Assembly: GCA_028534125.1 (NCBI GenBank)
Contig: CM052816.1
Span: forward strand, 56,670,001 to 56,734,000
Direction of reading: 5' to 3'
DNA length: 64,000 nucleotides
DNA from: Lama glama
Taxonomy: Eukaryota
Shown here: piece after piece, positions 16,664 through 56,355 of the stretch
Position numbering within the stretch: position 1 is the stretch's first letter
How the letters are laid out: each line of letters starts with the position of its first letter
Notes under the pieces: generated by a model
Database searches by the model: none
What the model was told of the DNA's origin: nothing
What the model saw: only the letters and a program-made list of their open reading frames with translations
Made by a program: the position numbers and the translations under genes

Positions 16664-16785
16664 TTTTTCTTTGGAAGAGAGGTAGGTGATTAGATTTGTT
16701 TATTTTGATGGAGGCCGTGGGGGTTGAACCCAGGACCTCATGCACGCTAAGCACGCACTCAACCACTGAGCTACACCCTCCCCCC
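16664..16785 (-). mobile_element. Vic-1 camelid tRNA-derived SINE
   Basis: Minus strand gggggaggg-TGTAGCTCAGTGG (A box)...gaggtcctgGGTTCAACCCC (B box), then the AT-rich tail aaataaacaaatctaatcacct. TSD aactgattt at 16655-16663 and 16788-16796. Confidence 0.92.
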
Positions 16786-16889
16786 AAAACTGATTTCTTT
16801 GATTCATATTTTCTGAAGCACAGTGAGAAGATAAAGATGGGCATAATGAAAGAAATACCAGCTACAATCAGAAATAACATGTAACGCTT

Positions 16890-20431: not shown

Positions 20432-20779
20432 GTATTTTATTGAAGTAGAGCTGATTTACAATGTTGTGGTAATTTCTGGTGTACAGCAGAATGACTCAGT
20501 TATACATGTATATATTCTTTTTTGTATTTGTTTTCATTATGGGTTATTACAATATACTAAATATAGTTCCTTGTGCTATACAGTAGGACTTTGTTGTTTG
20601 TCTATTTTATGTATGGTAATTAGTATCTGCTATCCCAAACTCCTAATTTGTCCCTCCCCTCCTTTCCCCAGTGGTAACCATAAGTTTGTTTTCTTTGTCT
20701 GTGAGTCTCTTTCTGTTTTGTGAGTAAGTTCATTGGTGTCATTCATATGTTATCTGTCTTTCTCTGCCGACTTCCTTCA
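20432..20779 (-). mobile_element. Cetartiodactyl-type L1 3' end with 13-bp TSD
   Basis: ttttattgaagtagagctgatttacaatgttgtg..atttctggtgtacagca...atatagttccttgtgctatacagtagg...ggtaaccataagtttgtt. TSD taaaagttagtta at 20419-20431 and 20780-20792. Confidence 0.92.
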
Positions 20780-20801: not shown

Positions 20802-21301
20802 NNNNNNNNNNNNNNNNNNNNNNNNNNNNNNNNNNNNNNNNNNNNNNNNNNNNNNNNNNNNNNNNNNNNNNNNNNNNNNNNNNNNNNNNNNNNNNNNNNN
20901 NNNNNNNNNNNNNNNNNNNNNNNNNNNNNNNNNNNNNNNNNNNNNNNNNNNNNNNNNNNNNNNNNNNNNNNNNNNNNNNNNNNNNNNNNNNNNNNNNNNN
21001 NNNNNNNNNNNNNNNNNNNNNNNNNNNNNNNNNNNNNNNNNNNNNNNNNNNNNNNNNNNNNNNNNNNNNNNNNNNNNNNNNNNNNNNNNNNNNNNNNNNN
21101 NNNNNNNNNNNNNNNNNNNNNNNNNNNNNNNNNNNNNNNNNNNNNNNNNNNNNNNNNNNNNNNNNNNNNNNNNNNNNNNNNNNNNNNNNNNNNNNNNNNN
21201 NNNNNNNNNNNNNNNNNNNNNNNNNNNNNNNNNNNNNNNNNNNNNNNNNNNNNNNNNNNNNNNNNNNNNNNNNNNNNNNNNNNNNNNNNNNNNNNNNNNN
21301 N
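20802..21301. other. Assembly gap (500 N)
   Basis: Run of n. Confidence 1.
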
Positions 21302-41793: not shown

Positions 41794-43057
41794 GTGGTCA
41801 AGACAGCCATGGAGGAAGATCCTACAGTCACCTCCTCCCTTAGACACACTGAATCTATAGCTACATATAGGGCAATTTCTTCTGAAAAAGACCTAAAAAC
41901 TAGCTAAACAGATGGATCACAAACAGATGGAGGAAAGGGCCACAATGAGGCGAGTAGGAGAGGTTGAGATGTGGTCACGTTTAAACAGCCCACAACCCCC
42001 TCCCCCCTAGCACCTCCAGGGAACTCAAACCCAGAGTTTCTCCCTAAGGAACAAAGGGTTCACTCCCCGACATCGGCACCCCCGCTTTTGAGACCTGCAC
42101 TTGAGAGATGAGTCCCTGAAACATCTGGCTTGAAAACCAGTGAGTCTTGCCTCCCCAAGACCCAAGGGGCTGTAGGGTTCTGAGAAACGGCTTTTAAACG
42201 GGCAGGCGTGCAGACTCTCTCTTCCCAGGGACGGCGTGGAAGCAGCCGTTTGAAAAGCGCACAGACTTTATGAGATTCATTTGCTGATATTAAAGCTATG
42301 GCCTGAGGGGCCAAGCCCCCTACTCTTCTGGGATAAGGATGAAGGCGCTGGCAGGCGCGTCTTACATGCCCGCCCTCCCTTGCTAAAGCCAGTGGGCGCA
42401 GGTGTTTTCCCCCGCTTGCTCACCCTCCATCTCCAGTCTACCTGCACCAGCGTCTCCCTGCAGGGGAGCGTTTGCTCCAGTCCAGCCCCCCGGGGTTTTT
42501 GCTGCCATCTTTGTGCCCTCCCTCTGCCTTGCCCGAGCTGGCCAGCTCCCCCAGAAAAGAGTTTATGCCCTGATCTGATGCCCTAGTTTTTCCGACTGTT
42601 GTCTAGCAAACCCCCTCCGGGTAGCCTGGCTCTCTTGGCCAGCAGGGCTTAGACTTGTGTCCCCACAGCACTGTCTCCATCTTACTGTCAAGTATTGACG
42701 TACTTTAAAGCTGCTGCTTGAGGATCTGACTTCCTAATCAGCCTGAATCTAGGTTCTGACTGAGGTGTCCCCCTCCTAGGACGCTGATAGGTCCTTGCAC
42801 ACCCTCAGGCACTGGAAGCCACCAAAAATAAAACAGGGCTGCTTGGATCAACACAGAGGGCTGGGAGACACCCAAGGGCTAGGGCAGGCTTGAACAATAA
42901 GGCTCATCTCCTACACAATCGCCACGATTTCGAGAGGCGGTTGTTTCATCTAGAATACAGAAACCCCGCAGAAAGTCAGGTTAAAGAAAACAGAAACATG
43001 GTCCAAAGGAAAGAAGATAAAATTTTAAGAAGAAAATCTTACTGAAACAGAGATAAG
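41794..43057 (+). mobile_element. L1 5'UTR plus start of ORF1, 3'-truncated (Laurasiatherian-type L1)
   Basis: Begins gtggtcaagacagcc..ggaagatcct..tcacctcctccc..gacacactgaatctatagctacatatag...ctgaaaaagacctaaaaac. GC/CpG-rich interior. Ends in an ORF1-start-like stretch cagaaacatggtccaaaggaaagaagataaaa...tgaaacagagataag. Confidence 0.85.
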
Positions 43058-51709: not shown

Positions 51710-52790
51710 GTAAATGACCAAGGTGCCAGAATAAATCAGGGGTGGGAAGCTGGAAATGGGTGAGGTTTTCCAAAGTCAGAAACTTTTAACCCTGTATATA
51801 ATGTCTAGAGAGGACTTGGGTTATCACCATCAATAGCTGCTAACACCATTAGAGAAAAGCTGATGGGGAACTTTTTGGAGGGAGGGGATTGAACCTAGGA
51901 CCCCATGCATGCCAAGCACGTGCTCTACCACAGAGCTACACCCACCATCCCCCAACCCCCAAACTTTATAATGGATGAATCAAGCTGACAACATCTGAAT
52001 CCATGGATCAATCTTAATATCACAAAAAGAGAAACAGACATGGCAAGCCTCCTGATGGGATGCACAGGAAATATACAACATATATCATTTAGGAAATAGA
52101 CAACCCTATCTATGAAGATCTTTCATGTCAAAAAAAAAAGCCTGTATCTAGTCAAACATCAAATACCTATTCCCCAGTTGATAGGAAATACAGCCAGAGA
52201 AGATTATGTTAAATGACACCATATGGATGAAATCAGCAAAATCTAGAACGCAGAAAATTTTTCAAAAGAAAAATATAATTTTTTTCAGAAAAAAATATCT
52301 TTTCAGCAAATAAACAACCCAGTCTTTTCAAGATTTATAAATCTTTTGTAAGTTTTTTTTAAGGCAAGGGAACCTTAGATTAAAGGAGACTTTTAAGAGA
52401 TACAAATCAAATGCAATATATCAAATTATTTGGATCCCATTTTGAACAAACCAAGGGAAAAAAATTGAGACAATCAGAGAAATGCAAGTACTGACAGTAT
52501 GATTTTAAGTAAAAATTGTTAAGGTTTCTAAGGTATAAAAATGATACTGTGGTGACGTAAAAAAAAAAAGAGTGTGCATCTTTAAGAGAAAGATACTGGA
52601 GTATTTTTGGATGAAATGATGGGATGTTCTGGATCTGCTTTAAGGAAGCCTAACATGAGAGGAGAGAAGAAAAGGCACTGATGAACCAGGGTTGGCTGTG
52701 TGCTGGTAATCGTTAAAGCTGGGAGGTCATTAAATCATTCTCTCTACTTTTGTATATATGTTTGAAACATTCTATGATAAGTTTTTTAAA
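51710..52790 (+). mobile_element. L1MC4/5-like 3'UTR, interrupted by a Vic-1 SINE
   Basis: gatcaatcttaatatcac...cctcctgatgggatgca...aaatcagcaaaatctaga...tagattaaaggagactt..gaga...aaatgcaat...tctacttttgtatatatgtttgaaa. Confidence 0.75.
51875..51961 (-). mobile_element. Vic-1 SINE (tRNA-like head with minimal tail)
   Basis: Minus strand gggtgtagctctgtggtagagcacgtgcttggcatgcatggggtcctaggttcaatcccc. Short direct repeat aacttt on both sides. Confidence 0.85.
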
Positions 52791-53440
52791 AGTCCATAGT
52801 CTTCCATATATTTGGAATATAAAATTCTAAAGGTTTCTCTATTATTCCAATAGCCAAGCTTTTGTATGTTTGATATAAACAGAACATTGCGGCAATAAAT
52901 CAGATGCCTCTTCTGGATGCTGAGTGTGTTTATATCAAGTTTAATGTGACTGTATGACAAGTCATTGGCAAGTGCTGTGTATGGGTTCATGTCTATTTAG
53001 AAAGATACACAATTCAAAGAACCTATTCCATAAAATAGATGAGGTTCATTTGAGTTTATAGCTATCCATAAAAATGATACAGATTCAGGTATGGTCTTTG
53101 CTCTTGCCTAGAAAGGCTAACATATCCTAAGTGAAATGTAATTCAGAAAAGATCTCATTTTATACCCTAGGTGTATTTGTCCTTGGCCAAAATGAATTGA
53201 TAAGGTTCTTTCAGAATTTAGTTTCCTATTCTTTAGCCTTTTGAGTTTACATAAAGCTAAAAAGTAATATTTTTTTAAGAAATAGGAACTAAAAGTAGCA
53301 CGTCTAGTCCAGCAACATCAAAGTCAACTTCAGTTCATAATAATAGTAGGTATCAATAGATACTGTCAAATGAACAGTGAATACATCATTCAAAAATTCT
53401 CTCTAATTAGAGTTGTGGGAATCGCGAATTTGAAATTCTT

Positions 53441-53790
53441 TTTTTTTTTGTATATATATTTTTATTGAAGTATAGTCAGTTTACAATATTGTGTCAATTT
53501 CTGGTGTACAGCATAATGCTTCAGTTGTACATATAATATATTCGTTTTCATATTTTTTTCACCATAAGTTACTACAAGATATTGAATATAGTTCCCTGTG
53601 CTGTACAGGATGTATGTGTTGTTTATCAGATTTTGTGAGAATTCTCCTGTATTTCAAAGCAAGAGACACTCTGCCAGAGTTCAGTAGGTGTTCTTTGTGA
53701 TTCAGTGGGATTGTAGGTGTAATTCTCGGTCTATTTGTGGGACAGGGCGAGCTGTGAGTCTCCCTACTCTGCCATCTTGGTACCTCCCCC
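53441..53790 (-). mobile_element. Internally deleted (probably spliced) L1: 164 bp of 5'UTR joined to 186 bp of 3'UTR/poly(A), 10-bp TSD
   Basis: Minus strand starts gggggaggtaccAAGATGGCagagtagg (L1 5' end with YY1 motif). It joins at 53627/53626 to ataaacaac...tgtacagcacagggaactatattcaatatcttg...aataaaaa-poly(A). TSD tgaaattctt at 53431-53440 and 53791-53800. Confidence 0.88.
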
Positions 53791-53949
53791 TGAAATTCTT
53801 GTTTAGAAAGTACCTTAAAATTTCATTTCTTGTCTTCTCAGCAGCCTCAAACTGAAAGTGTAGTCAAGATAGAACTACCTGATAGGGCTTCTATCTTTAA
53901 GCCTATTATTATTTGACCTTCAGTCAAACATTAAAGTCAATCTTCACAC

Positions 53950-55200
53950 CAAGCCACAATGGCAGGTACAGCATGATTAGGAAGGAGAGCGCCTAGAACA
54001 AACATGGAGATAAACCTAACCTGAAAACAGAACACAAGAGAAACACAAGAAGCTGAAGAAAACATCCCAAACCATAATATCTTCAAAGATATATTTAATA
54101 GACATTTCAGCCACCAAACAAGATTCCACAAAGTAGGAGCGATAAGAGAATAAGGGAAATCTCTTAAAAATTAAATATATGTTGGCTGATTTAAAAAAAA
54201 AATCAGTAGAATAGTAGGAGGTTAAGGACAAGAAAATCTCCCAGAAAGTAGAACAAAAACATGAAGAAATGGAAATAAAAGGAAAAAAAAAAAAAACAGA
54301 AAAACCAGAGGATCCAAGGTGTCCAATTTATAACTGGAAACTTCTAGTGAAATAAAACTGAAAAGAAGCAATTTATTTTAAAGAAGAAAATATCCCAGGA
54401 TGAAAGGAAACACATTTCTAGATTGAAAGAGACTAATGAATAATTAGTAAAAATGATTTTTAACAAAAGGCCACACTAAGGTGTGTAATCAAATTCATCC
54501 AAGAAGGAGTAAACAGATAATTCTAAAGGTTTCCAAAAAGCAAGAGCAGGTCACAAACATAGGATTAAAATCAGAACAGCATCAGACGTCTCAACAGCAA
54601 CCCAGAGAAGGGGAAGAATCAAACCCTTCAGAATTCTGAAGGAAAATAATTTTGACCTAGGATTCTAAGCCCAGATATGTTATAAAAAACCAAATGTAAA
54701 GGTAGCAAAAATGAATAAATGAAATGAAAAAGACATTTTAACTAACGGGGGAAAATGTGCTTTCATTATACCTTTTCTTAGGAAAGTTTAGAGATATGCT
54801 CCATTAAGTAAAGGAAGATATCACAGAAGAGGAAGGATGGGGCTGAAGACACAGGACCCAACACAGGAGAGGCGTGAAGAGATGTCCCAGGAGACAGCCG
54901 CCCTGCAGGCCTGGATGCAACAAGGGCGTATTAGAACAAGAGGACAGAGGATTCTGAAAGGGATGTTTCCGGAAAGGAAAATGAAGCTGGTGGATTTTGG
55001 AATGTGTTGAGTATATGTAAAATAATATTGATCAATATTGTTGAAAGAAGTAGAGGAACTTGGGAAGAAAACACAGGAGGTGGGAAAAAAATTGAGAATA
55101 CTGAAAAAATAAGGCAGATGGTTAAAGTTTCAGTAGGACAGAACAGAACTGTCAATAACATTATTTTTAGTAGCTTGTGTACATAGAGTTGATTTTTCTC
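53950..55200 (+). mobile_element. HAL1 (half-L1, ORF1-only) element, degenerate
   Basis: A-rich ORF1-like motifs (aaatctcccagaaagtagaacaaaaa, tcagaacagcatcagacgtctcaacagcaa, aattctgaaggaaaataatttt) plus the HAL1-like ccaacacaggagagg...tcccagga.acag...gcaggcctgga. Confidence 0.75.
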
Positions 55201-55339
55201 CACCTTGAAAGAGCTCAGCTCTCACTAATGTCCTTTTCCAATCTTAAAATATCCACATATAACTGTAAATATGATTCCTTGGAAAACTACTTCTCAAAAT
55301 ACAAAATATATTGAGCCCATTCAAAAAGAAGTAATGTGT

Positions 55340-56355
55340 CTGCATAATTAAGATTGGATACTTTTGAAATTCCAATAGACTGGTGTTAGAACAAACCTTT
55401 ATGAACAGGCACTTCAGAGAAGAAGAAACCCAAAAAGCGAATAAATATAAATAACGTGCCAAAGCTCCCTGAAAGAATTGAAAAGAATCGAAAGAATGAG
55501 TTAGCCATTCCATATCCATGATATCAGCAAACTCTAGAAGCCTAACAATAGTAGGTATCAGGGAGAACCTGGAGAAACTGGAACTCATATATTGCTGAGA
55601 GTCACATGACAATTTTACAGAGAAATCAGTAGTACCCAGGGAAACCAAAGACATCCCTGCCACTTCTAGGTGTTTATAATCTAAATAAACTCTCATTCAT
55701 GTGCACAAGGAAATGTGCATAAAAGGATGTTTACTGAGAATCATTTGTAATAGAAACAAATTTAGAAACATCCTAATTACTTATTAGTAGGATAACGAAT
55801 ATACTGTTTGTTTACTAATTAAATAGTACACAGTAGTTTAAAAATTAACTGTTCTACATGTATGAATATGCATGTTGCATGAAAAAAATAAGTTGCAAAT
55901 AGACACACACACACACACACAAATATATGGGGGGGAGAGAGGGAGGGGCAGGCCAGTCTATACTATCACTACATTATATGTATCCCTAAACAATATATCT
56001 TTTTTTGTTGTTTTTCACTACCTATGTATGTATCCATCAATGATAAACAATGTATTTTTTGTTTGTTAAACAAAGCAAACATATGATATATTGTTTACAG
56101 ATACATAAGTGTTTAAATGGCATAAAAACATACTACGGAAATGATATACACCAATTACAGGAAATTGATTAATTCTGAATAGGAAAGAAAGAGAAAGATA
56201 AGGGGGAGGGATTTTATACCTAATATTTCTTTAAAAAAAAAAAAGGGCAGAGAGATCTCTGAAGCATATATGGTAAAAGGTTAACTTCCGTTAAATGCAC
56301 GCCTGATAACGTATTTTCTATGCTTTTTCGCAAGTTTGAAATTTTTCATAATTAA
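55340..56355 (+). mobile_element. L1ME-type ORF2 end and 3'UTR
   Basis: atgaacaggcacttcagagaagaagaaacccaaa..gcgaataaatata...tggagaaactggaactc...catgtgcacaagga...tttgaaatttttcataatt. Confidence 0.75.
55903..55921. repeat. (CA)n microsatellite
   Basis: acacacacacacacacaca. Confidence 0.85.

Follow-up and report, generated by a model that had tools for sequence, protein, structure and literature searches.

Copying of a spliced RNA by the L1 machinery is well known from processed pseudogenes, in which a spliced and polyadenylated RNA was copied by L1 proteins in trans and is flanked by a target-site duplication (TSD). Splicing of L1 RNA itself was reportedly described by Belancio et al. in 2006, whose data may include 3' acceptors, and Repbase may hold short L1-derived entries. 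The human L1 SpIREs are spliced within the 5'UTR or from the 5'UTR into ORF1 (97/622, 97/790, 97/853 and 97/976) and keep ORF2; in the accessible text of Larson et al. (2018; PMC5860796) they account for 131 of 6,609 full-length L1s (~2%) and are regarded as dead ends, and the 5'UTR/ORF1 SpIREs require ORF1p in trans. HAL1 (half-L1) retains ORF1, the L1 5' part and the 3' end, as described in PMC5786205. ORF-less bipartite LINEs are listed only for the RTE, Ingi, Vingi and R2 clades in the accessible part of Kojima (2018; PMC5786205), and an L1 SIDE is stated as not observed in that of Eickbush and Eickbush (2012; PMC3414825). For these ORF-less LINEs and SIDEs an origin by deletion or template jump is proposed, and they propagate in lineages.

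In the window, the whole stretch of 64,000 nucleotides of Lama glama DNA that was analysed, a minus-strand insert of 350 nt (53790-53441) was found in which a 164-nt L1 head is directly followed by a 186-nt L1 tail. We consider it probable that this insert, called mini-L1 in the following, is a retrocopy of an L1 RNA spliced from the 5'UTR to the 3'UTR that was mobilised in trans, and that such copies are dead ends which were formed repeatedly. Its parts are the following, where L001, L002 and L005 are L1 heads from other DNA that are introduced below:

53791..53800, minus strand: target-site duplication, 5' side; reaches 53804 with one mismatch
53627..53790, minus strand: L1 5'UTR head, 164 nt, the predicted first exon, from its likeness to the L001, L002 and L005 heads
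53771..53779, minus strand: CAAGATGGC, YY1-type motif near the L1 start, from the sequence
53626..53627, minus strand: junction CTG/ATA, the predicted exon-exon joint of a GT-AG intron, from contigs, alignment and sequence
53441..53626, minus strand: L1 3' end, 186 nt, from its match to window positions 20601-20435
53431..53440, minus strand: target-site duplication, 3' side, from the sequence

The original prediction of a minus-strand, L1-derived insert with a perfect 10-bp TSD, a 5' head and a sharp junction is confirmed by the sequence. The 10-mers at 53791-53800 and 53431-53440 are identical (plus strand TGAAATTCTT), which has a chance of 3e-6 at one given place. When one mismatch at 53801 is allowed the TSD extends to 14 bp and the target becomes CT/AAAC, which is nearer to the L1 site TT/AAAA; a better target fit is often given by such relaxed TSDs according to the passages on this point in Kojima (2010; PMC2912911). 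Together with the A tail, the insert shows the hallmarks of an L1 insertion, i.e., TSD, A tail and an endonuclease-like site. The head begins GGGGGAGG and shows 65-67% identity to the L1 heads L001, L002 and L005 (z 15-18, 0/300 shuffles as good), with which it also has the CAAGATG in common. The sequence CAAGATGGC at 53779-53771 is presumably a YY1-type motif. The junction reads ...CACAAAATCTG/ATAAACAAC... at 53627/53626. From its first base on, the tail is identical at 134/166 positions to the other L1 3' end of the window (z 25.9); it carries AATAAA at 53466-53461 and an A tract of only 9 nt (53449-53441). Both ORFs are absent and stops are present in all three sense frames of the 350 nt.

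For the head no Rfam match was found up to E 1, and at the insert neither a tRNA call nor a B box was obtained, only one A-box-like match; an identity as a small-RNA (polymerase III) SINE was therefore rejected. Elsewhere in the window a tRNA-Ala call lies at 16709-16781 (window feature 16709-16787), with an 80% similar copy at 51876-51955. These two are probably tRNA-Ala-derived SINEs, a kind of SINE that is known from camelids. The surroundings of the insert (~52000-52800 and 54000-56100) are presumably very old, A-rich L1-like remnants on the plus strand.

Compared with the described systems, the insert resembles SpIREs in being an L1 retrocopy with TSD and A tail, in its deletion from a 5'UTR donor to an internal acceptor and in the recurrence of a fixed joint. 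In contrast to the described SpIREs, it has its acceptor in the 3'UTR, lacks ORF1 as well as ORF2, is only 350 nt long and comes from a host that is not a primate. It is thus a variant outside the described SpIRE classes, which differs from them only in the acceptor position and the loss of ORF2. Like SIDEs and the bipartite non-autonomous LINEs it retains nothing of a LINE but the 5' and 3' ends, has no coding capacity and needs an autonomous partner, but unlike SIDEs its origin looks like splicing. The insert works like a SpIRE and has the anatomy of a SIDE. With HAL1 it shares the status of a non-autonomous L1 derivative with L1 5' part and 3' end, whereas no ORF is present, and it differs from processed pseudogenes in that its source is L1 itself and the internal promoter start is kept. 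Neither ORF-less spliced L1s nor such camelid elements were found in the published literature that was searched. In the accessible parts of the camelid papers PMC8605555 and PMC6726744 and of an L1-chimera preprint (10.1101/2025.02.02.635956) no such element is mentioned.

To see the joint outside the window, four public runs (of 24) were used in the form of contigs at 82% likeness; X1 and X11 are DNA runs, X15 and X19 are RNA runs. Of 75,917 matching pieces 32 were listed individually, and a piece was counted as bridging when it has at least 31 letters on each side of the joint. Three of these 32 listed pieces, from two of the four runs, bridge the joint and are 9-17% unlike the insert: record 10 of X11 (32 letters on one side of the joint and 121 on the other, with 26 differences in 153 and no gap), record 19 of X15 (39/127 letters, 27 differences in 166, no gap) and record 18 of X15 (71/89 letters, 14 differences, 12 gap letters). 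Record 2 of X1, with 29 letters, stays just under the rule. As the insert's own flanks differ by only 0-1 letter in both DNA runs, the bridging contigs must come from other loci. The same joint, for which recurrence had been proposed, is therefore found beyond a single locus in three diverged contigs from two runs.

Two of the three bridging contigs belong to the RNA run X15, and in the two RNA runs the flanks of the insert are almost uncovered; such contigs cannot show strand, start or splicing. The longest of them, record 19, continues for 517 letters where only 37 head letters remain and is therefore part of a longer RNA or DNA and not a free mini transcript. In addition, records 20 (X15) and 31 (X19) match for 8 letters beyond the junction, to 53619, and then diverge; they may represent additional minis whose tail has changed, or a different joint.

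The insertion itself is shared by the organisms labelled A and E, because a piece that crosses its 5' boundary (53732-53975) has 0 differences in both DNA runs, which come from these two. Sampled words were present at 65-72% in 14 DNA-type runs with five organism labels from five studies. An empty-site joint was not found among the 15 of 38 joints that were listed. One joint, 53612-53820, was read as chance, since its far side apparently covers only ~18 letters.

The sequencing depth is very different for the two parts of the insert. In run X1 the tail reaches up to 3.4 million whereas the head shows 3.9-20 thousand, where depth is not equal to copy number. The tail thus exceeds the head by two to three orders of magnitude, to which older L1 families contribute, and this gap would fit if minis made up little of the total of L1 tail insertions. 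At 53626, the first tail base, the depth that carries A corresponds to ~175-190 single-copy depths; as minis and ordinary tails are mixed in it, this is at most a rough upper limit for copies with a likeness of 82% or more.

A splicing origin requires a donor in the parental head. The original prediction had pointed to an older head in the same window:

41794..41960, plus strand: older L1-type head, a comparator outside the insert, with weak homology

In this head a GTAGGA is present at 41954, i.e., nt 161. However, it is barely homologous to the insert head (z 2.3, 6/300 shuffles as good) and in the alignment its GT falls two columns beyond the junction, so that it was discarded as donor evidence. 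As donor comparators we used five host L1 heads (L001-L005) of a related but more distant family, which were obtained in a metagenome scan. In all five (5/5) a GTAGGG starts 13 nt past a C(C/T)CAC anchor, and the junction of the insert lies at the same distance. In a MAFFT alignment the G of this GT shares its column with the first tail base of the insert.

L001-L005 are metagenome-assembly contigs with mammalian L1 5'UTRs, i.e., host DNA, and the scan yielded these five heads of the more distant family and none of the insert's family. The L004 head shows a 43-nt tandem duplication (locus ~1028-1100) that repeats a conserved motif block. Scans of viral contigs with two head patterns gave 0 matches each. 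Four bacterial matches to the junction pattern in the genome-contig scan were considered as chance, each being confined to 20-21 pattern letters.

For the insert's own L1 family the donor can be followed in the DNA runs. At 53626 a G instead of the A is found in 1785/4074 depth units from 17 contigs in X1 and in 1598/3843 depth units from 18 contigs in X11, i.e., a G share of 42-44% of the depth. In X11 no A>C change is listed and only a single A>T, at 53710; therefore the base after that G would be T or C, with neither G nor A at 5% or more, provided that the contigs cover it. The full GT is read only in heads that are 65-67% identical to the insert head, while in the insert's own family the G is direct and the T indirect. 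The predicted GT at the donor breakpoint is in this way present in 5/5 related heads and half seen, half deduced in the insert's own family. Furthermore, records 4, 12, 22 and 32 end their likeness at 53627-53629 and continue with 69-319 unlike letters, and behave as unspliced heads would, judged from the letters of the contigs. Heads of both kinds, spliced and unspliced, thus occur side by side within the same genomes.

For the acceptor, the tail was compared to the second L1 3' end of the window:

20435..20779, minus strand: independent L1 3' end, a comparator outside the insert; AG at 20603-20602 directly before the homologue of the tail start

This copy reads ...ATAAAATAG/ (TAG) before the base homologous to the tail start, 20601. 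It lies ~20 nt from a 500-N gap (20802-21301), so that its 5' extent is uncertain, and its AATAAA is not followed by a clear A tract. Of the six loose-end majority rows shown for 53602/53608, two also have the AG, one from X19 (53608) and one from X15 (53602); in the other four it is not clean (agreement 0.57-0.63). An AG directly before the tail homologue at the position of the junction, as had been claimed, is accordingly supported by the TAG of the window copy and by two loose-end majorities. The acceptor is weak in the window's L1 3' end, with pyrimidines at 10/20 nt before the AG and no clear tract; in that copy a CTAAT resembles the yUnAy branch motif, with the A at -19.

The joint could also have been made without splicing, once, by a jump of the reverse transcriptase from the 3'UTR to the 5'UTR or by a genomic deletion, followed by amplification, in which case GT-AG would be coincidental. 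For R2 SIDEs an origin by template jumps and recombination is proposed in the accessible text of PMC3414825, and the weak acceptor would fit. Head end and pre-acceptor sequence also share AAAAT and the final G, and directly beyond the cut they agree at two of three bases (GTA vs ATA). However, AAAAT is one base out of register; because it is common to both sides the BLAST match runs 11 nt past the junction. In register, the microhomology at the joint is 1 nt (the G), which was the outcome when microhomology instead of GT-AG was looked for at the breakpoints. A switch at AAAAT is disfavoured because it would have kept the AG, whereas the insert keeps the CTG of the head. GT..AG at both ends of a random cut has a chance of ~0.005 over two registers, a rough and post hoc value in which the GT frequency is taken from the related heads. 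A deletion after insertion cannot yield the same register at other loci, as seen in records 10 and 19 without gaps. We therefore regard an origin without splicing as improbable, and that the mini-L1 was made by splicing, in any of the three forms considered here, as very likely. The originally predicted splice between a 5'UTR donor and a 3'UTR acceptor is supported by better comparators than the 41794 head, which carries little weight.

In the favoured reading of splicing followed by insertion in trans, a full-length L1 with both the head and the tail of the insert, assumed here to be a single parent, would be transcribed. The spliceosome would then join the donor at nt 164/165 to a cryptic acceptor in the last part of the 3'UTR, ~175 nt upstream of the poly(A). 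Everything in between, from the remaining 5'UTR through ORF1 and ORF2 into the first part of the 3'UTR, would be removed as one GT-AG intron. The 350-nt polyadenylated noncoding product would be captured by ORF2p from a different L1, which would insert it by target-primed reverse transcription; as neither ORF is left, mobilisation would have taken place in trans. As the mini RNA is short it would often be copied whole, while most L1 insertions lose their heads, and this could let minis seem common beside full-length heads although they make up little of the total of tail insertions. Infrequent capture in trans could account for so small a share. Minis would originate repeatedly from full-length L1s, each copy being a dead end as for human SpIREs.

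Alternatively, the L1 RNA might be spliced after it has bound its own proteins, for example in a particle that is back in the nucleus, and be inserted in cis. We consider this highly improbable. To our knowledge splicing on assembled L1 particles has no demonstration, and capture in trans suffices, as processed pseudogenes prove. Its advantage is that ORF-less copies could then be produced in large numbers despite the cis preference of L1 that is described in the accessible text of PMC5860796.

In a further variant splicing made the first mini, and one or a few inserted minis retained sufficient promoter in their 164-nt head for transcription and spread as a polymerase II-driven non-autonomous family. 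The insert would then belong to an L1 parasite of 350 nt that has no ORF and propagates itself, spreading from master copies by means of L1 proteins. The L1 start, the YY1-type motif, AATAAA and the A tail are all kept, the joint recurs, and at 53626 A has as much depth as G, where the A again mixes minis and ordinary tails. However, the distance from the insert is 14.5, 16.3 and 17.0% for bridging copies, with one closer piece at 8.8% plus 12 gap letters, and 13.7-17.5% for the unspliced heads, so that in this comparison of eight long, diverged pieces the bridging copies appear not clearly closer to the insert than the unspliced heads. The distances of 8.8-17.5% suggest an old family. Moreover, the insert head retains only 2 CpG, and human SpIREs that have lost the inner 5'UTR show reduced promoter activity according to PMC5860796. 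Taken together, we regard a self-propagating family as rather unlikely, and dead ends formed repeatedly by splicing and trans insertion stay the preferred reading.

The mini-L1 represents spliced L1 retrocopies at their extreme, as an L1 body of several kilobases would be taken out as one intron. It bears on splicing as a brake on L1. It also bears on the strictness of L1 cis preference, since a noncoding RNA of 350 nt could still be inserted repeatedly. If the self-propagating reading were true, the element would be an L1 counterpart of the SIDEs, which are reported as not observed in the L1 clade in the accessible parts of PMC5786205 and PMC3414825. It also points to a route besides deletion by which a non-autonomous mini-element could arise from a LINE. 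As L001-L005 all carry the GTAGGG donor, comparable spliced minis may be present in further mammalian lineages. Annotation would probably split such minis into two L1 fragments without a link between them, and they may therefore have been overlooked in other mammals.
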